Source: Verrucomicrobiota bacterium (GTDB taxonomy: Bacteria > Verrucomicrobiota > Verrucomicrobiia > Limisphaerales > Palsa-1400). Taken from it: a stretch of DNA of 64,000 nucleotides. The stretch covers positions 64,001 to 128,000 of the forward strand of contig JBEKYR010000007.1 of NCBI GenBank assembly GCA_049510745.1. Reading direction: 5' to 3'. Made by a program: the position numbers and the translations under genes. The notes under the pieces are model-generated. The model was not told where the DNA came from, did not search any database, and saw nothing but the letters and a program-made list of their open reading frames with translations. This document shows positions 16,069 to 50,836 of this stretch, in pieces (position 1 is the stretch's first letter; each line of letters starts with the position of its first letter).

Positions 16069-17166
16069 TTGAACTCGAAGTCCACACTGCAACTTTTGCG
16101 GTTCAGCCCGGCGCGCTGGCTGCTGGCCCTCCTGCTGGCCGTTTCGGCCTGGCCGGCCGGCGCGCAGCCTGCCGCGATTTCCGTTTCGAGAGGCGCGGCC
16201 GTGCCGGTTTCGGCCGCGCTGGCCATGCCCGGACCCGCCCCGGATCACCGGCTGGAACTGCCCGCCGTCTTTCGCAAGGCGGCGCCCGCCTCGATGGCTG
16301 ACTTGCAGGCCATCCAGAAATGCGTCGAGGCGCTGGTTCCCCAGGTTTCTCCGGCCGTGGTCGCGGTGGAAGTCGGCGTGGCCAGCGGCAGCGGGGTCAT
16401 CATCTCCGCCGATGGCCTGGTGCTGACGGCCGGGCACGTATGCGAAAGTCCCAATCGCAATGTCCGCTTTGAATTTCCCGACGGCAAAACGGCCAGGGGC
16501 AAGACGCTGGGTCTGGATGACGACGCCGACACCGGCTTGATGAAAATCACGGACCCCGGCCCCTGGCCCCATGTGGCTGTCGGAGATTTGGAGCAGGCGC
16601 GCCCGGGCGATTGGGTGCTGGCGCTGGGCCATCCCGGCGGTTTTGATGTCAAGCGTTCGCTGGTCGTGCGCCTGGGGCGCATCATCCGCCTGGCGCCGGG
16701 CGTGCTGCAAACCGATTGCATGATCAGTCCGGGCGACTCCGGCGGGCCTCTTTTCGACATGCAGGGCCGGGTCATCGGCATCCACACCGCCATCAGCAGT
16801 TCCAGCGCTGAAAATTTCCACGTGCCGATCACCGAATTCTACGACACCTGGAATCAATTGGTTCTGACGCCCCGCGCGGACGGCCGCCCGCGCCCTCCGC
16901 CGGCCTACGCCGGCGTCAGCGTCGTGGATGACGCCGCCGGCTGCCGCCTCCGTGCGATTGACAACAACAGTCCCGCCTCGAAGGCCGGGCTGAAAATCGA
17001 CGACGTGATCCTCAAAGTGGAAGGGCGCACCCTCGCGGCCTCGGCGTCCTTTGCGCGCTGGGTGGCCGAGGCCGGCCCCGGTGAAACGTTGGCTCTGCAA
17101 GTCAAGCGCGGCGACAAACTCCTCTCCTTGAATTTGAAACTCCAACCCCCGCCGCAGAACAACTGA
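16069..17166 (+). CDS. S1C/HtrA-like serine protease with PDZ domain
   Basis: GSGVII, LTAGH, DTGL, GDSGGP; C-terminal PDZ (SPASKAGLKIDDVI). Start codon uncertain (TTG). Confidence 0.88.
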   Translation: MNSKSTLQLLRFSPARWLLALLLAVSAWPAGAQPAAISVSRGAAVPVSAALAMPGPAPDHRLELPAVFRKAAPASMADLQAIQKCVEALVPQVSPAVVAVEVGVASGSGVIISADGLVLTAGHVCESPNRNVRFEFPDGKTARGKTLGLDDDADTGLMKITDPGPWPHVAVGDLEQARPGDWVLALGHPGGFDVKRSLVVRLGRIIRLAPGVLQTDCMISPGDSGGPLFDMQGRVIGIHTAISSSSAENFHVPITEFYDTWNQLVLTPRADGRPRPPPAYAGVSVVDDAAGCRLRAIDNNSPASKAGLKIDDVILKVEGRTLAASASFARWVAEAGPGETLALQVKRGDKLLSLNLKLQPPPQNN

Positions 17167-41737: not shown

Positions 41738-41968
41738 ATGACTGTTGTTCACATGTCTGAAACGGGGCAAATTGTCGTGCCAAAAGATATCCGCGACCAA
41801 CACGGGTTTGGGTCGGGGAGCGCGTTTGCCGTTTTGGAAAGCAAGTCAGGTGATATTATCTTTCGCCCGGTCAAGGCCGAACCCAAGATGGACTTGGTTG
41901 ATCATTTGCTGCGGCTTAAGGGCGTCGAAATCCCGGAGCGGACCCACTTCTGTCCACCCCAGACGTGA
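41738..41968 (+). CDS. vapB: AbrB/MazE-type antitoxin
   Basis: MSETGQIVVPKDIR..G swapped-hairpin motif; 4-bp overlap with the PIN toxin gene. Confidence 0.82.
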   Translation: MTVVHMSETGQIVVPKDIRDQHGFGSGSAFAVLESKSGDIIFRPVKAEPKMDLVDHLLRLKGVEIPERTHFCPPQT

Positions 41969-42390
41969 CGTATTTGCTCGATACAAACGTCGTTTCCGAA
42001 GCCTCCAAGCCGGTGCCCGACGTGCATTGCGTGGCTTGGCTCAAGTCCAAACGAGGGGACTGCGCTCTTTCCACCATTAGCTTGGCGGAGCTGCGCTACG
42101 GGATCGAACGAATGCCCGACGGCAAGCGCAAATCGGCCGCGGAATCAGTCTTCCAGTTTCTTTGTGAGGACTACGCCGGTCGATTTCTGGAATTTGACGG
42201 GCCTTCTGCCGCCGAGTGGGGTCGCTATGCTGCCGAGCTGGAGGCAACACATGGGTCGGGCTGGTGGAAGCAGTTTGACTTGCGGGATACCCAGATTGCA
42301 GCCATCGCACGCGAATATGGCCTCACTGTGGCCACGCGCAACGTCCGGCATTTTCCATTCTGCCCGACGGAAAATCCGTTTCAGGCTTGA
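41965..42390 (+). CDS. vapC: VapC-family PIN toxin
   Basis: YLLDTNVVSE, ELRYGI, D.QIAAIA, VATRN..HF. Confidence 0.92.
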   Translation: MTYLLDTNVVSEASKPVPDVHCVAWLKSKRGDCALSTISLAELRYGIERMPDGKRKSAAESVFQFLCEDYAGRFLEFDGPSAAEWGRYAAELEATHGSGWWKQFDLRDTQIAAIAREYGLTVATRNVRHFPFCPTENPFQA

Positions 42391-42398
42391 CCGAACGG

Positions 42399-42944
42399 TT
42401 ATTTGAGCGCCGCCTCAACGGCCTGCACCAGGTCCGCCGCGTCCGGTTTGACGGCGGGATCGAAGCGTTTGACGACCTGGCCGTTGCGGTCAATTAGAAA
42501 TTTTTGAAAGTTCCATTTGATTTCGCCGGGAAAGGCGGAATCGGGGCCGGTCAAGGCGGCGTAGAGCGGGCATTTTTCCTTCCCCTTGACGTGGACCTTG
42601 GCCAGGAGCGGAAAAGTCACGCCGTATTTCTCCGTGCAGAACGCCTTGATCTCCTCCGCCGTGCCCGGTTCCTGCCCGAGAAAATCATTGGACGGCACCC
42701 CGATCACCACCAGGCCCTTGTCCTTGTATTTTTCGTAAAGGGCTTCCAGGCCCGCGTATTGCGGAGTGTAACCGCACTTGGAGGCGACGTTGACGAGCAG
42801 AACCACCTTGCCCGCGTACGATTTGAGCGACGTGTCGTTGCCGTTGATGTCTTTCAAGGGAATGGACTGCAGCGCGGAATCCTTGTCCGCCCGCGCGATC
42901 TGCGCCATCGCCATCACGGCCAAAAAGGAAAGAAGTGTCTTCAC
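42399..42944 (-). CDS. Glutathione peroxidase family protein (Cys-type, probably exported)
   Basis: NVASKCGYTPQY, PSNDFLGQEPG, WNF.KFLIDR.G; signal-like N-terminus from GTG 42944. Confidence 0.92.
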   Translation of the reverse strand: MKTLLSFLAVMAMAQIARADKDSALQSIPLKDINGNDTSLKSYAGKVVLLVNVASKCGYTPQYAGLEALYEKYKDKGLVVIGVPSNDFLGQEPGTAEEIKAFCTEKYGVTFPLLAKVHVKGKEKCPLYAALTGPDSAFPGEIKWNFQKFLIDRNGQVVKRFDPAVKPDAADLVQAVEAALK

Positions 42945-42988
42945 GACGGCCAATTTGCCACCGGCGCCGGCGATGTCAACGGCCTTTC

Positions 42989-44350
42989 GGTCGTGGCTAC
43001 TTTGAAAAAAGACTTCCGCCCGGCCCGGTTGGCATGATAAACTAAGGGTCATCTATGAGTGATGGCCCAGACGATACACCCAAGCCAGCACCCCAAGGCG
43101 ATGCCGCAGAGGAAGAGGAAGAGGTTATGCCAACCAACCGCAGTCGGGTTCAGCGTATCCGCATCTTTATCGGCAAAGGATTCTCCGCCCTTTTCCTCAA
43201 CAGGCGAAGTAAGCTCCGTGCTGGGATTTGTGGCGGCATTAGCGCATTTTTCATCACTTTCGGCGGCATCATGTTTAAGGTTCATCATACACCTCCGTGG
43301 GTCGCAATCTCGTTAGTCTCGTTTGGAATTCTTTGGCTCGTACCAGGCACCTGGCAATTTTGCGTAAATTATGGTTCCACCAACAAATTTGCGTATATAT
43401 GCTCTAGCTTTGTTCTGGTTCCGGTCATTATTGGAATCGCGTTGGCTTTCTGGTATGAATACCGCCCCGACCGAACCAAGCCGCCAGAGTTTGCAATCGC
43501 AAGCAGTCCGCTTGATTTGTCGGATTTTGGGGGCTTGGCGGCATCACAAGAAGCAGCGGCAAACCGCCGCAAACACATCCTTTCCATTTCAAATCCAAAT
43601 GGCGATGTTGCATTGACGAACATGCTGTTTTTCTTACAATTTCCAGAGTCGATTCTAAGTATAACTGGAGCCGGGTTTACGGCAGTTCCAAATTGGGAAC
43701 CACAACCAATCACGATTACAGGCACTACAAACCCGATATTTGTTGAGCCGTGGAAAACGAATGAACTGACTGGCTTATGGAGCATTTCGATTGACGAAAT
43801 CCGGCCTCTTTCCTCTTTAACTGCAACAATTATCACTTCAATTGGAGCCGAAGGGAATCCGTTTAGTGCTTGGATGACAAATGTAATGACTAACAAGTGG
43901 CCAAAAGTGGTTTGCTGGCATATCCGCACCAGCCAGTCGACAAGCAGTACAACATCGAATGTTAAGGCGGTTATAGCGGCCTTAGCTTTTGATTCATCAA
44001 ATCGGACATTTGCTGTGACATCCCAAAACATCATGGTCCTCGCTTCCCGGAGGGGTGAGGAAACAACGTTCTCTAATTCGCAACCCATTATTTTCATGCG
44101 ATATTGGAAAGGATATAAAGTGCCAGGAATCGGCGCGTCTCGGATTTTGACCGTTGATGGGCCTTGGGTGGGGCAATCAATGGCGTTTGCGGAAGTGATG
44201 ATGCAACGACCGACGAATAATACAACCACGTCTTTTGGGGGCGGAGTGCCATCTATCGACATAAAGCCAGACACAAATGCACCGCCGCCAACCCATTGAA
44301 TAAATCGCCTTTTCGTATGGACGCCATTCATTTCAAAGTAGCCCACTACC
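42989..44350. mobile_element. Non-autonomous IS-derived mobile cassette (IS1-like ends, no transposase)
   Basis: Left end GGTCGTGG-CTACTTTGAAA; right end (revcomp) GGTAGTGGGCTACTTTGAAA; GGCCTTTC duplicated at 42981-42988 and 44351-44358; low-GC interior. Confidence 0.85.
43055..44299 (+). CDS. Passenger gene: hypothetical membrane protein (about 3 TM segments plus S/T-rich domain)
   Basis: 414-aa ORF filling the cassette; AT-richer codons; TGn-TAAACT extended -10 at 43035-43043. Confidence 0.7.
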   Translation: MSDGPDDTPKPAPQGDAAEEEEEVMPTNRSRVQRIRIFIGKGFSALFLNRRSKLRAGICGGISAFFITFGGIMFKVHHTPPWVAISLVSFGILWLVPGTWQFCVNYGSTNKFAYICSSFVLVPVIIGIALAFWYEYRPDRTKPPEFAIASSPLDLSDFGGLAASQEAAANRRKHILSISNPNGDVALTNMLFFLQFPESILSITGAGFTAVPNWEPQPITITGTTNPIFVEPWKTNELTGLWSISIDEIRPLSSLTATIITSIGAEGNPFSAWMTNVMTNKWPKVVCWHIRTSQSTSSTTSNVKAVIAALAFDSSNRTFAVTSQNIMVLASRRGEETTFSNSQPIIFMRYWKGYKVPGIGASRILTVDGPWVGQSMAFAEVMMQRPTNNTTTSFGGGVPSIDIKPDTNAPPPTH

Positions 44351-44426
44351 GGCCTTTCGGTTTTCTTGGCGCCGGTTTCTGGCTCTTCCTCTTAACGAAC
44401 ACAGAACGCTGGCAAACTGAATCGCT

Positions 44427-46112
44427 TTGGCACAACCTGTTCTCTTGAAGAAATTTTCCATCGAATCCGCGGCGGCGGGGCGATATGGGCTGGCGGTGGT
44501 GGCGGGGTTGCTGACGAGCCTGGGGTTTGCGCCGGCGCAATTGGGCGGCGCAGCCTGGGTTGGTCCCGGCTTGATTTTGTTTTGCGGCCTGGGATGCGGC
44601 GGCGGCCGGGCCTTCCGGGTGGGGTGGGTGGCGGGTCTGGCGCATTTCCTCAGTTCGCTTTACTGGCTGCTGGCGATGCCCTTCGCCTGGCACGGCATTC
44701 CGCTGGCGCCCGCGCTGGCGTGGGTGGCCTTGAGCGCCTATTGCGCCGTGTTTTTCGGGCTTTGGGTCTGGTTTTGCTGGAAGGTTTTCCCGGGCGAAAT
44801 TTCCGCGCCGGAATTGTCCCTGCCCGGCCTCGTGGACCAATTCCTCTCCACCCCGCCATGGAAGCGGGTCGCTTGGGCCATCGTTTGCGCGGCCGGGTGG
44901 ACGGCCCTGGAAGTGGCGCGCGGGCGGGTGCTGGGCGGGTTCCCGTGGAATTTTCTGGCGGCCTCGCAATACCGGCTGACGCCTCTGATCCAAATCGCCT
45001 CGATCACCGGCGTGTGCGGCGTTTCGTTTCTGATGGCGTGGTTTTCTGTTGGCCTGGGCGCGGCCATGCTGGCGTTGGCGCGTTGTCCGTCAACACAAAG
45101 AATCTGGAGTGACGCCGCGTTGCCCTTGCTGGCGGTGGCCGGCGTGGTCAGTTTCGGCATGACCCAGTTTGCGCCCGCGCCCGCCTCCGGCCGGGAAATA
45201 AAAGTGGCCCTGGTGCAACCGAGCATCCCGCAAACGTTGATCTTCGATCCGAAAGAGGATGCCGCGCGTTTTCAGGAGGTCATCGCTCTTTCCGAGCAGG
45301 CTCTGGAAGCGAAGCCGGACCTGCTGCTCTGGCCGGAGTCGGCTGTTCCGAATCTCGGCGCGGAATGCCAGCAAGGCATCGCCCGCCTGCTGGGCCGCCA
45401 TCCGCTCTGGCTGATCTTTTGCGCCGACTCCAATGAACCGCTGCCCTCAGGGGCCAACGCCGATTTCAACAGCAGTTTCCTGGTCGATCCGGCGGGGGCG
45501 ATCCGGGCGATTTATCACAAACGCCGGCTGGTTATTTTTGGCGAATATATTCCCCTGGTCCGGTGGCTGCCCTTTCTCAGATGGCTGACGCCGATTGGCG
45601 ACGGTTTTACGCCGGGAGATCGCCCCGTCCCGTTCGAGATGACGCATCCCGATGCCAGGTGTTCGGTGCTGATCTGTTTCGAGGACATCTTTCCGCAAGA
45701 GGCCCGCGAACACGCGGGGCCGGACATTGACTTCTTGATCAACCTGACCAATGACGGGTGGTTCGGCAACGGCCCCGAACAACTGCAGCAGGCCGCCGGC
45801 GCGGTCTTTCGGGCGGTCGAGAACGGGATGCCGCTGCTGCGCTGCACCAACAACGGCCTGACCTGCTGGGTGGATGCGCAAGGGCGGTTGCGGCGGATCC
45901 AAGAGGCGGGCGGGAACATTTACGGCCCGGGTTTCATCACGCCCACGATCCCCTTGCCCCCGCCGGGCGGGCATCGCCGGACATTTTACAATCGTTATGG
46001 AGATTGGTTCGGCTGGAGCTGCTGCGGCCTGAGCGTTTGCGCCCTGATGCTGCCGCGGGGGCGCAGGCCATCCTCCGGCGCCGTGTCCACTGACTCGCAG
46101 GACAGTGCCTAA
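44427..46112 (+). CDS. lnt: Apolipoprotein N-acyltransferase
   Basis: GGFPW, LVQP.I, WPES, YHK..LV.FGEYIP, ICFED, TNDGWF, RAVENG. Start uncertain. Confidence 0.93.
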   Translation: MAQPVLLKKFSIESAAAGRYGLAVVAGLLTSLGFAPAQLGGAAWVGPGLILFCGLGCGGGRAFRVGWVAGLAHFLSSLYWLLAMPFAWHGIPLAPALAWVALSAYCAVFFGLWVWFCWKVFPGEISAPELSLPGLVDQFLSTPPWKRVAWAIVCAAGWTALEVARGRVLGGFPWNFLAASQYRLTPLIQIASITGVCGVSFLMAWFSVGLGAAMLALARCPSTQRIWSDAALPLLAVAGVVSFGMTQFAPAPASGREIKVALVQPSIPQTLIFDPKEDAARFQEVIALSEQALEAKPDLLLWPESAVPNLGAECQQGIARLLGRHPLWLIFCADSNEPLPSGANADFNSSFLVDPAGAIRAIYHKRRLVIFGEYIPLVRWLPFLRWLTPIGDGFTPGDRPVPFEMTHPDARCSVLICFEDIFPQEAREHAGPDIDFLINLTNDGWFGNGPEQLQQAAGAVFRAVENGMPLLRCTNNGLTCWVDAQGRLRRIQEAGGNIYGPGFITPTIPLPPPGGHRRTFYNRYGDWFGWSCCGLSVCALMLPRGRRPSSGAVSTDSQDSA

Positions 46113-48629: not shown

Positions 48630-48881
48630 GTGCCGAAACGAGACGCAAACGACATCAAACGACTGATTGGCGATCGGGTTCGGCGACTGCGGATTGAGCG
48701 TGGCATAAGTTCGCAGGAAAAGCTGGGGGAAATTGCGAACGATCTGCACCGCACGTTTATCGGCCGGGTGGAACGCGGCGAAACTAACATCAGCATTGAG
48801 AATCTGGACGCGATTGCCAAGGCGCTCGATGTCTCGTTGGCGGAGTTTTTCGAGCCATTTCAGAATAAAGGAGGGAGGTAA
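48630..48881 (+). CDS. XRE-family HTH regulator, probable RM controller (C) protein
   Basis: G.RVRRLR..RG.SQEKL....LHRTFIGRVERGE.NISI.NL..IA.AL; 6 bp before the putative endonuclease. Confidence 0.8.
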   Translation: MPKRDANDIKRLIGDRVRRLRIERGISSQEKLGEIANDLHRTFIGRVERGETNISIENLDAIAKALDVSLAEFFEPFQNKGGR

Positions 48882-48887
48882 TTCGGC

Positions 48888-49514
48888 ATGGCCAACCCGG
48901 AGCCGCAACTCGAGGCGGTTTTATCCAGAATTCGGAATCCGCGGAATTGGGCGGACGTTAAGACCATTTTTCAAGTCATCCAGAGCAACCCAAGTCTGCG
49001 CGGGTTTGTTTACGGCTACGTCGCGGAAATGGAATTTGAACGCCATTATCTTAAGGCCCGGAAGGGTATTGAGGGATTCTCCAAAGACGACGACCACCAC
49101 AAGACAAAGTCGGATCGGACGGTGACTTTCAAAGGCAAGCCGATTTCGATCCAAGTGAAGTCCGTCCAAACGAACAGTATCCGGTTTGACGGGGGCCGCT
49201 TTATGGCCAGAGTTCAGAACGACGCGAGCGACCGTCGTCGGGTGACATTGCCCAATCAGACGAAGGTGGAAACGACCTGTTATGTCGTCGGAGAATATGA
49301 CATTCTGGCTGTAAGTTTGCAGCCGTTCACCGGGAAATGGAGGTTTGCGTTCAAGGAGAACTCGAAATTACAACGAACCACCTCCGGGAAATACACGGCT
49401 GAACAACAGAGGTATTTGCTCGCCACTTTGGAAACCATTCACTTTCCGCTGGATGCTTCGTGGACGGAGGACTTTGACGCCATCCTCGAAGTCGTCCACC
49501 GCCAGAAACATTAG
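48888..49514 (+). CDS. Putative type II restriction endonuclease (PD-(D/E)xK-like)
   Basis: GYVAE...SD...IQVKS catalytic-like motif; located between the C-like gene and a convergent methyltransferase. Confidence 0.65.
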   Translation: MANPEPQLEAVLSRIRNPRNWADVKTIFQVIQSNPSLRGFVYGYVAEMEFERHYLKARKGIEGFSKDDDHHKTKSDRTVTFKGKPISIQVKSVQTNSIRFDGGRFMARVQNDASDRRRVTLPNQTKVETTCYVVGEYDILAVSLQPFTGKWRFAFKENSKLQRTTSGKYTAEQQRYLLATLETIHFPLDASWTEDFDAILEVVHRQKH

Positions 49515-50806
49515 GGCGACTTTTTCGCGCGGAAAGGCGCGCCTTTCTCCATCAATAGCAGTTGCTCGCCATTGGCGGAATAATTGCCCCAGTCCACCCG
49601 AAATGAATTCGTTGTGACCGCGCCTTTTCTCAATACCAGTATGCGGTCAATCAGAACCGACGACCGCTCGCCGTGTTCGGCGGCGTCATACTCCCATTTG
49701 AGCGAGTTGAAGACGAGCATGGGGCGGTTGTGGAGTTTGTAAGTGTCATTAATAATGCCCTCGATGTCAAAACCCTCTTTTTGCGCTTCCTCCGCGATGA
49801 GCAACGCGGAGTTGATGACTTTGACCGCGCCGTTGGCGCGGGTTTTCTTCACGTCGCCGACCACGATAACGAACGCGGAGTCCGGCTTCATGATGCGAAA
49901 CATTTCCCGGCAGACGTCGCGCATGAATTCGCGGTACGTATTTTCCAAGCCCGAACGCATGAGTTTCTTTTGCTCTTCGCGCCGCTTGTCGCCCAGCCAC
50001 CAAACACGCAGCCAGTTGTTCCACGAATAGTCCAGAACGCTTAGATAGGGCGGCGAAGTAAGAACAAAGTCCACACTCTCGTCCGGCAGCGGCACGGAGC
50101 GGGCGTCGCCCCTGAAAATCGCTCCTTTTCTGTCCGGAATCCCGGCACAGAGGCTGCGTTGCGCCTTGTTCATGGCACACTCGTAAACACCCCGCTCCGG
50201 CTTGACGAGTCCGTGTTCTTTGACGTAACGCTCCACATAGCCCGGCGTCGAGGACACGGTGTCCTTCATGCTCAACGAGAGAAACATATTCGACGGGCCA
50301 TGCAGAATCCCGCAAACCACTCCTTTCAGGAAGACGGCCTCGTCTGAATCGTCTTCCATCAGCACTGCCCGCAAGCGCAGGATTTCATCGAGCGTCTTCT
50401 CGGAATAAAAGATCAGCAGGTTCGGATCGTCCAACAATGCCAACCGCTTCGGTTGGCCGTCAGCCTCCCTCAACTTCTTTTTCAAATAACATTCGAACTC
50501 GCGCAACTCCATCGGCCGCGTTTTCGCCCGGGAAAGCGTATAGGCATAACCAAAGGCGTCGCTGGCGCTCGCCCGCCGATTCGAGAGCAGGGCCTCCAGC
50601 GGAGTTGTCCCTCCGCCGGAAAAAGGGTCGAACACCGTTTGTCCCGGAAGCGAATACTGCTGAATGAAAAAATGCGCCAGACTCGGGGGATATTGGCCAA
50701 TGTATTGCGAAAGCTTGTGCAAAGGATGCCCCCAGCCACGCGGAGCCGCCTTCCAAGTTGAAGGCAGTTGCGAACTGTCAATAAACTTTATCTCCCCGGT
50801 CAGCAT
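49511..50806 (-). CDS. DNA amino-methyltransferase (probably N4-cytosine, alpha-type motif order)
   Basis: Motif I DPFSGGGTT precedes motif IV TSPPY, with a long intervening region. Confidence 0.88.
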   Translation of the reverse strand: MLTGEIKFIDSSQLPSTWKAAPRGWGHPLHKLSQYIGQYPPSLAHFFIQQYSLPGQTVFDPFSGGGTTPLEALLSNRRASASDAFGYAYTLSRAKTRPMELREFECYLKKKLREADGQPKRLALLDDPNLLIFYSEKTLDEILRLRAVLMEDDSDEAVFLKGVVCGILHGPSNMFLSLSMKDTVSSTPGYVERYVKEHGLVKPERGVYECAMNKAQRSLCAGIPDRKGAIFRGDARSVPLPDESVDFVLTSPPYLSVLDYSWNNWLRVWWLGDKRREEQKKLMRSGLENTYREFMRDVCREMFRIMKPDSAFVIVVGDVKKTRANGAVKVINSALLIAEEAQKEGFDIEGIINDTYKLHNRPMLVFNSLKWEYDAAEHGERSSVLIDRILVLRKGAVTTNSFRVDWGNYSANGEQLLLMEKGAPFRAKKSP

Positions 50807-50836
50807 CGCATCATTTACGTAGCACAAGTCTGACGA

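Follow-up and report, generated by a model that had tools for sequence, protein, structure and literature searches.

We describe a family of IS1-related elements that inserts 15 bp upstream of the -35 boxes of sigma-70 promoters, in either orientation, as shown statistically on several hundred insertion flanks. A worn member of this family, transposase-free and with a single gene, lies in the 64,000-nucleotide stretch of DNA analysed here (the window). It is quite likely an internal-deletion derivative of a cargo-carrying, promoter-targeting IS1-type element.

The cassette and its locus

The cassette is located between two divergent host genes, one for a glutathione peroxidase and the other for apolipoprotein N-acyltransferase (lnt), both of which point away from it (Table 1). 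It is flanked by an exact 8-bp duplication, and its ends form an inverted repeat of 19/20 bp that includes a perfect core of 13 bp, the left end having one substitution and one missing base. It spans 1362 bp with a GC content of 48.5%, compared with 60.3% in the host genome, and contains one plausible gene, which is overlapped by an antisense frame of 325 aa. Coordinates and sequence thus agree with an earlier, sequence-only reading of this DNA in its description of the ends, the 8-bp duplication, the AT-richness and the single 414-aa gene.

A genome-wide scan for this anatomy looked for GG..CC units that contain a perfect internal inverted repeat of 13 bp and are flanked by an exact repeat of 8 bp. 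In the 5.6-Mb genome it yielded only two, the window cassette and a similar low-GC unit on contig C18. Therefore, the pairing of the ends is not a matter of chance. The cassette as a whole is single-copy in its genome; the 20-mer of its right end occurs six times at up to two mismatches, and a control, the 19-mer of the right end read backwards, does not occur in the genome.

The TTGACA of the peroxidase gene (minus strand, 42979-42974) lies 1 bp outside the duplication and was left intact by the insertion. In local alignments, TGTCAA or GTCAA is retained at its position in the relatives G002, G004 and G010, and a TTG is weakly aligned with the TTGGCG position upstream of lnt in the same-genus genome G001. 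A promoter scan called neither the left-end promoter nor either host promoter. The empty site that the sequence-only reading had proposed to look for was not found: the junction of the peroxidase gene and lnt is syntenic in none of the 30 relatives searched, and four low-share peat runs yielded nothing but short contigs with the exact sequence of the filled allele, none of them joining across the cassette, which weighs neither way.

Two further observations concern the neighbourhood. A PIN-domain (VapC-like) gene lies at 41965-42390, just downstream of the peroxidase gene and convergent with it. A block of lower GC content at 48630-50827 may be a restriction-modification islet; it has a small ORF without a Pfam match, a 208-aa ORF of unknown nature and a DNA methylase.

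Table 1. Features of the cassette and the adjoining host genes, in window positions.
Feature	Position	Strand	Basis
Left target duplication, GGCCTTTC	42981..42988	.	Sequence; family duplications are 8 bp
Left inverted repeat, GGTCGTGGCTACTTTGAAA; one substitution and one base short of the family end	42989..43007	+	Sequence; profile of 51 ends; left-end alignment
Putative left-end promoter region; TG-N-TAnnnT at 43035-43043; ahead of a small basic ORF of about 43 aa in intact relatives	43008..43043	+	Alignment of nine left ends; promoter activity inferred
Inferred deletion junction, 8-nt word TGATAAAC	43035..43045	+	Similarity to L206/L207 begins at 43035
Passenger gene, 414 aa	43055..44299	+	N-terminal membrane module and soluble beta-rich module
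Right inverted repeat, exact family end; reverse-complemented, GGTAGTGGGCTACTTTGAAA	44331..44350	-	Sequence; end scans
Right target duplication, GGCCTTTC	44351..44358	.	Sequence
TTGGCG, candidate lnt -35, family register +16, without clear -10	44366..44371	+	TTG aligned in G001; weak
TTGACA, likely peroxidase -35, +10 from element end, off register	42974..42979	-	Sequence; kept in relatives
Glutathione peroxidase family gene, start codon inferred	42399..42944	-	Pfam PF00255, E 5e-37
Apolipoprotein N-acyltransferase (lnt)	44427..46112	+	Pfam PF20154 and PF00795

The end family and its transposase

Ends of the window type mark two more units in the same genome: C2:26127-27202, with a duplication that agrees at 7/8 positions and a 98-aa C-terminal remnant of a transposase, and C8:219860-222039, with flanks that agree at 6/8 and no transposase. 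Another such end stands alone on C18. A second type of end bounds C2:212027-214677, which has a perfect duplication and a truncated transposase; judged by eye, its pair of genes for 386 and 160 aa resembles a toxin-antitoxin module of an HTH-peptidase and a PIN-like protein. A third type bounds C18:15493-17263, with an exact 8-bp duplication and with the lone window-type end inside it at 16760, so that these may possibly be nested elements. No intact transposase was found in the 94%-complete assembly of this genome.

At up to two mismatches, the window-type end is present in 9 of 18 genomes of the same taxonomic family and in none of 12 from other families, and the pattern of two end types recurs in 58 of the 401 genomes of the order. 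A GTDB-wide scan for exact ends returned at least 123 stretches; among the matches listed, most of the 80 with a title are from Acidobacteriota. The end motif therefore has other copies both in the genome and in its relatives, as the sequence-only reading had expected. It had also anticipated an autonomous transposase with the same ends, and intact elements of 3.0-3.2 kb with these ends and perfect 8-bp duplications indeed exist in the family-level relatives G009 and G014, each with a single transposase ORF of 276-279 aa and with different passengers.

Across 41 transposases, D66, D138 and E204 (the DDE triad), N207 and R211 are invariant. The best family model for two of them was the NCBIfam IS1 model, with 52.9 and 49.4 bits at a cut-off of 100; PF03400 gave 24.4 and 19.3 bits (cut-off 24.1). 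The IS1595 model NF033547 scored 19.5 bits against a cut-off of 75 for one transposase and did not match the other, so that of the two affiliations considered by the sequence-only reading, IS1 and IS1595, the latter is not supported. An affinity to IS1 is also suggested by the E-R-x-N motif that the transposase has in common with InsB (38% over 39 aa), and by the short ends of the form GG(T)nnTG, which start with GGT, as do those of E. coli IS1A, and are flanked by 8-bp duplications here and in most of the paired relatives. Homologues on alphaproteobacterial plasmids (51-55%) are mostly annotated as 'IS1 family transposase' and have passengers within paired ends. Among solved structures, the best match was ISCth4 (about 165 columns, TM 0.42), an IS256/Mutator-type transposase; this similarity reflects the common DDE core, not membership, and there was no Mutator model among the Pfam or NCBIfam matches of the family transposases. 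We take the family to be a single-ORF, passenger-carrying subgroup, the ISMhu11 group of ISfinder; a literature search on this name found no paper.

Some of these elements also contain tRNA-like genes. On the transposase strand, ARAGORN called them within 600 nt upstream of the transposase in 8 of 41 cases (14 with relaxed settings) and downstream in none (two when relaxed). Examples are C8:220997-221092 of the window's own genome and the loci L052, L053, L210, L435, L464 and L468. The anticodon is TTA ('stop') in six of the 14, and a 96-nt form ends in CCA; the window cassette has no such gene. Among the literature matches listed, no paper on such genes was found.

Insertion at a constant distance from promoters

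The sequence-only reading had remarked that the cassette sits just outside the TTGACA of the peroxidase gene, and from this remark we started a count of words in the flanks of family members, read outward from the element end. In a first set of 173 flanks, which contains six ends from the window's own genome, GTCAA or TTGAC occurred within 30 nt in 34 flanks, compared with 7.4 in shuffles, and the excess was confined to one position. A TTG starts at base 16 outward (+16) in 45 of the flanks, but in only about three elsewhere, with five at +15 and seven at +17. TAnnnT follows at a spacer of 16-18 in 20 of the 45 flanks with this TTG and in 15 of the 128 others (p 1.6e-5). The TTG at +16 is one-sided in 28 of 47 paired insertions and two-sided in none.

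A second set consisted of separate chromosomal flanks from the order (n=95, 86 of them next to the second end type). Here, TTG was found at +16 in 22 flanks over a background of 1.6, with two at +15 and none at +17; a -10 hexamer accompanied 5 of these 22 and 1 of the other 73 (p 0.002), and 18 of 27 paired insertions were one-sided and none two-sided. Pooled, the family has a TTG at +16 in 67 of 268 flanks, compared with 2 of 228 for E. coli IS1 (Fisher p 1e-17), the latter taken from four chromosomes with up to 30 loci each; all these p-values are optimistic, given the kin and repeated families in the sets. The peak persisted in every subset tried, among them one flank per locus (59/235), the set without multi-copy miniatures and the miniatures alone.

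The in-register words read TTGAC at 33 of the 67 sites. Enrichment of the -10 hexamer is restricted to spacers of 17 and 18 (14 and 11 of 67, with 0-1 at spacers 12-16 and 19-23), and several sites combine a well-placed -10 with a poor -35. The promoter may lie next to either end (left in 7 cases, right in 9). In 23 of 28 cases, the promoter side has a long ORF that points away from the element, compared with 13 of 22 for the other side, a weak contrast. In the window's own genome, all four paired elements of the first two end types have the TTG at +16 on one side. An alternative view of the C2 and C8 flanks, as insertions into a 10-bp tandem repeat, was rejected, as the +16 register explains them better.

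The rule has its exceptions. The C18 unit with the third end type has no TTG at +16, two of four plasmid elements have one, and about 35-40% of paired insertions lack it. The signal is weaker on viral contigs, with 4 of 19 paired insertions, 11 of 102 unpaired ends and none of the 11 unpaired ends near a transposase, in a set that may include chance matches of the 17-base pattern among the unpaired ends. A secondary TTG peak was observed at +6 to +8, inside the duplication and one helical turn from the main peak (at +6, in 10 of the 173 flanks and 6 of 38 viral flanks), and several viral duplications resemble CAAwwTTG.

As for the window itself, the proximity to the peroxidase -35 noted in the sequence-only reading is real, and so is the link to -35 boxes for the family, but this particular TTGACA stands at +10 and not at the register of +16. 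The in-register word is instead the TTGGCG on the lnt side, which has no TAnnnT at a spacer of 17-18; TTGGC occurs at only one of the 67 in-register sites, the window site. The window site is compatible with the +16 rule, but it is a poor example that fits only weakly.

How the promoter may be recognized

At this register, the target duplication lies about 43-50 bp upstream of the transcription start and 15 bp before the -35 hexamer, and the host promoters are left intact. In promoters, activators and the alpha-CTD sit between -43 and -50. The one-sidedness of the signal and the co-enriched -10 suggest that the whole promoter is recognized, most simply via bound sigma-70 holoenzyme, and on balance we favour the view that the family docks on promoter-bound sigma-70 RNA polymerase. 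A predicted complex of the transposase with region 4 of sigma-70 scored 0.00, which weighs neither for nor against this. The transposase or a small element-encoded protein could also read a word resembling TTGAC directly on the DNA, at a distance of 15 bp from the cut and free of polymerase; the share of TTGAC among the in-register sites and the small second peak, one helical turn closer, would suit such a mechanism. However, a symmetric DNA-reading dimer does not predict one-sidedness, and of 74 paired chromosomal insertions none has the motif on both sides. Direct read-out also sits badly with a -10 hexamer that is co-enriched at spacers of 17-18 only and with sites that have a correct -10 yet a poor -35, and we consider it unlikely. 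Still far less probable is that elements insert at random and that selection retains the promoter-sparing copies. Surviving insertions would generally be expected to be intergenic, but selection predicts a broad zone, whereas the peak is one base wide (45 versus 5 and 7; 22 versus 2 and 0), and E. coli IS1 has no such peak.

Diversity of elements and cargo

We catalogued 100 non-redundant elements bounded by duplications, four of them from the window's own genome. Only 8-bp repeats were scored, and the catalogue is biased towards exact ends and units of less than about 6 kb; very short transposase tails, such as the one in L130, escape the search. Nineteen elements have an intact transposase, three a broken full-length one and nine a remnant; 21 lack a transposase but have an ORF of at least 100 aa, 11 have neither a transposase nor a long ORF, and 37 are shorter than 400 bp. 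The last group includes nine palindromes of 32-38 bp (L099, L110, L112, L128, L143, L158, L163, L168 and L175), which consist of two abutted ends in perfect or near-perfect form, have 8-bp duplications (seven of them exact) and in 5/9 cases a TTG at +16. Such palindromes may have been left behind by excision or may be minimal mobile units. Elements also occur close together: a second family end starts 12 (L168) and 8 (L256) bases outside one element, as in stacking at one target, and one viral contig (L241-L243) has several small elements in a row.

Miniatures without transposase reach multiple copies in three genomes, as a 169-bp form in G003 (L021-L050, L061) and as a 91-bp form in G243 and G172 (L382, L412-L418), and they also insert in register. 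No transposase match was found in the 81%-complete assembly of G003. The 91-bp miniature is the only recurrent unit in a comparison of the 100 elements.

The cargo is diverse, as the sequence-only reading had supposed and as the catalogue and the PADLOC and Pfam scans bear out. From 74 passenger ORFs, 10 overlapping, doubtful or duplicate ones were dropped; among the remaining 64, 12 matched PADLOC families at E 1e-5, namely three methyltransferases, HEC-04, SspD, PDC-M63A and B, a PD-Lambda-2 B-like protein and four weak or generic matches. Pfam added ClpP-like SDH proteases (4), PIN domains (2) and GmrSD (2). The ClpP-like SDH proteases are passengers in L069, L077, L091 and L419, one of which is transposase-free.

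Origin of the window cassette

The first 55 bases of the window cassette follow the family left end, as seen in an alignment with eight other left ends, six of which have an exact TG-N-TAnnnT. In intact elements of the same family, this motif lies ahead of a short basic ORF (41-47 aa). Consequently, the TG-A-TAAACT that the sequence-only reading had attributed to the cargo as its own extended -10 turns out to be the conserved left-end promoter motif of the element.

The two closest homologues of the passenger, both on metagenome contigs (69% and 59-62% over the N-terminal module), directly follow the last codons of a transposase in 2/2 loci. The DNA similarity of the loci L206 and L207 to the window begins at 43035, where both carry a transposase tail. 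When the junctions are compared (TGATAAACTAAGGGTCATCTATG in the window, TGATAAACCGAGGGTCATCTATG in L207), TGATAAAC can be read as the -10 region of the left-end promoter as well as the tail of the transposase (Ile-Asn-stop, 43037-43045), of which three codons are all that is left in the window cassette. Because the left-end -10 motif coincides in part with these final codons of the transposase that was lost, it would mark the deletion junction. L206 is itself a distinct cassette that has lost its transposase; its ends are related, but its breakpoint differs and its C-terminal domain is unrelated, so that it represents a second, independent deletion of a like sort.

In the scenario that follows from this, an intact parent would have consisted of the left end and its promoter, the small basic gene, passengers, the single-ORF DDE transposase, a downstream passenger and the right end. 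This parent would have entered the gap between the divergent peroxidase and lnt genes and duplicated 8 bp, as shown for the family. A deletion between two near-copies of TGATAAAC would then have cut out the whole stretch between the left-end promoter and the last codons of the transposase, including the small gene, the other passengers and the transposase itself, and would have placed the remaining passenger under the left-end promoter of the element. No parent element for this locus was found in the relatives or in the own genome searched.

The deletion probably occurred in place rather than in an ancestor that was later moved in trans. The sequence-only reading had proposed the opposite, a gene-shuttling system that mobilizes cargo in trans; the cassette would then be a true mobile insertion cassette, a 1362-bp unit formed elsewhere and moved as a whole by a transposase in trans. 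The perfect duplication and the exact right end are in line with this, as are the 21 of 100 bounded elements that have a long ORF and no transposase. Movement in trans is clear for the miniatures: the gene-less 91-bp unit is present at seven sites in two genomes, and one unit, 169 bp in its sole whole copy, is behind the eight contig-end loci listed for G003, a genome with 30 ends. Yet none of the 21 cargo-bearing, transposase-free cassettes was found at two sites, although each genome was thinly sampled, and the window cassette is single-copy, with a damaged left end, in an assembly that is 94% complete and has no intact transposase. Moreover, the breakpoints differ among nine further elements that retain part of a transposase, as independent deletions predict. 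The sequence-only reading's further suggestion, that this copy is fixed because its left end is degraded, is plausible. We therefore regard transport of the finished cassette in trans as rather unlikely and prefer a deletion at the present locus.

The passenger protein

The passenger consists of an N-terminal membrane module (approximately aa 1-145) and a soluble, beta-rich module (approximately aa 140-395) with an Ig-like sandwich. Hydropathy peaks begin at aa 56 and 115, and by eye another run of hydrophobic residues, the third, can be made out near aa 82-98. A search of 1.84 billion representatives gave 47 matches including the protein itself. They form one set that shares the N-terminal 145 aa but has unrelated C-termini and another that shares aa 140-395 but has other N-termini; P0005 has both modules. 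A model of aa 111-414 (pLDDT 82) is built mostly of beta strands, and its Ig-like sandwich is weakly similar to many unrelated proteins; the best VIA match (Z 9.1, rmsd 5.0 over 130 residues) is one among many unrelated beta-sandwiches. Only a sub-threshold WD40 match was obtained in Pfam, none in NCBIfam, no PADLOC family at E 1e-5, and no Foldseek match at E 0.001, with all Atlas matches below 0.9.

Among the 401 genomes, a profile of the C-terminal module matches only the window's own genome. The N-module profile gave seven other weak matches, one within an intact element whose duplication is perfect (L204), one with a single end adjoining (L203) and five in low-GC islets without a convincing end. 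In the window's own genome (G000), C1:129861-130397 and C1:70409-71062 are low-GC single-gene islets, again without convincing ends, for membrane-anchored proteins that are weakly related to the passenger.

Taken together, the passenger appears to be a membrane-anchored protein made of two exchangeable modules. Its architecture and the cargo of the family lead us to the weak guess that it is most likely a cell-envelope binding or phage-exclusion factor; a role in defence would be possible, if doubtful. It illustrates the pool of membrane anchors and soluble domains that are recombined within these elements.

Relation to known systems

Like IS1 (E. coli IS1A, InsA/InsAB'), the family has short inverted ends starting with GGT, an 8-bp duplication and a DDE transposase with E-R-x-N. 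Unlike canonical IS1, it has one ORF of about 276 aa in place of the programmed insA/insB' frameshift, carries passengers on both sides, has elements that range in size from 32 bp to 4.2 kb, and keeps a fixed register to -35 boxes that is missing from E. coli IS1 (2/228), the window copy being transposase-free in addition. Transporter IS (tIS), mobile insertion cassettes (MICs) and MITEs are known classes (PMC3129680, PMC2266710, PMC9330008). By these descriptions, the intact relatives resemble tIS, as their paired ends enclose both a passenger and a transposase, and the window cassette resembles MICs such as MIC231 of the IS231 group, with paired IS ends around a passenger and no transposase (PMC3129680, PMC2266710, PMC9330008). 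It differs from MIC231, which belongs to the IS4 family, in its transposase deletion scar.

A comparable targeting is described for TnGBS/ISLre2 (p-MULT 3) and ISKra4, whose insertions lie 15-17 bp upstream of sigma-A -35 boxes, most often at 16 bp, and occur in both orientations where the ends are symmetric (PMC3942029). There, contact with RNA polymerase is proposed for these Mutator-like elements, untested by the authors, and the targeting is called unusual among prokaryotic transposases (PMC3942029). Our family shares with them the fixed distance upstream of -35 boxes and the freedom of either end to face the promoter, but it differs in its short transposase, for which the best family models are those of IS1. 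No report of a fixed -35 register in IS1-type elements was found in the literature searched, which extended to neither the main IS reviews nor ISfinder. Within the literature covered, the cassette family is therefore a new variant, an IS1-type transporter with a promoter-fixed targeting that has so far been described only for an unrelated group of transposons.

On its own, the window cassette is of an ordinary kind, the worn derivative of an IS that carries an uncharacterized gene and no transposase, and the importance of the finding rests on the family. A broader reading, which we put forward tentatively and with slightly less than even confidence, is that an IS1-related lineage of soil and peat bacteria acts as a promoter-guided gene shuttle, which would have acquired docking on sigma-70 independently of the Mutator-like elements and would carry defence genes and domain-shuffled membrane proteins. 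It would leave behind transposase-free expression cassettes, such as the one in the window, that are still mobile in trans. If true, a transposase of 276 aa able to move units of about 90 bp and more would offer a compact system for studies of polymerase-guided transposition, and the family a possible tool for safe-harbour insertion. It would also explain the origin of the isolated, AT-rich single-gene islets that lie between host genes.
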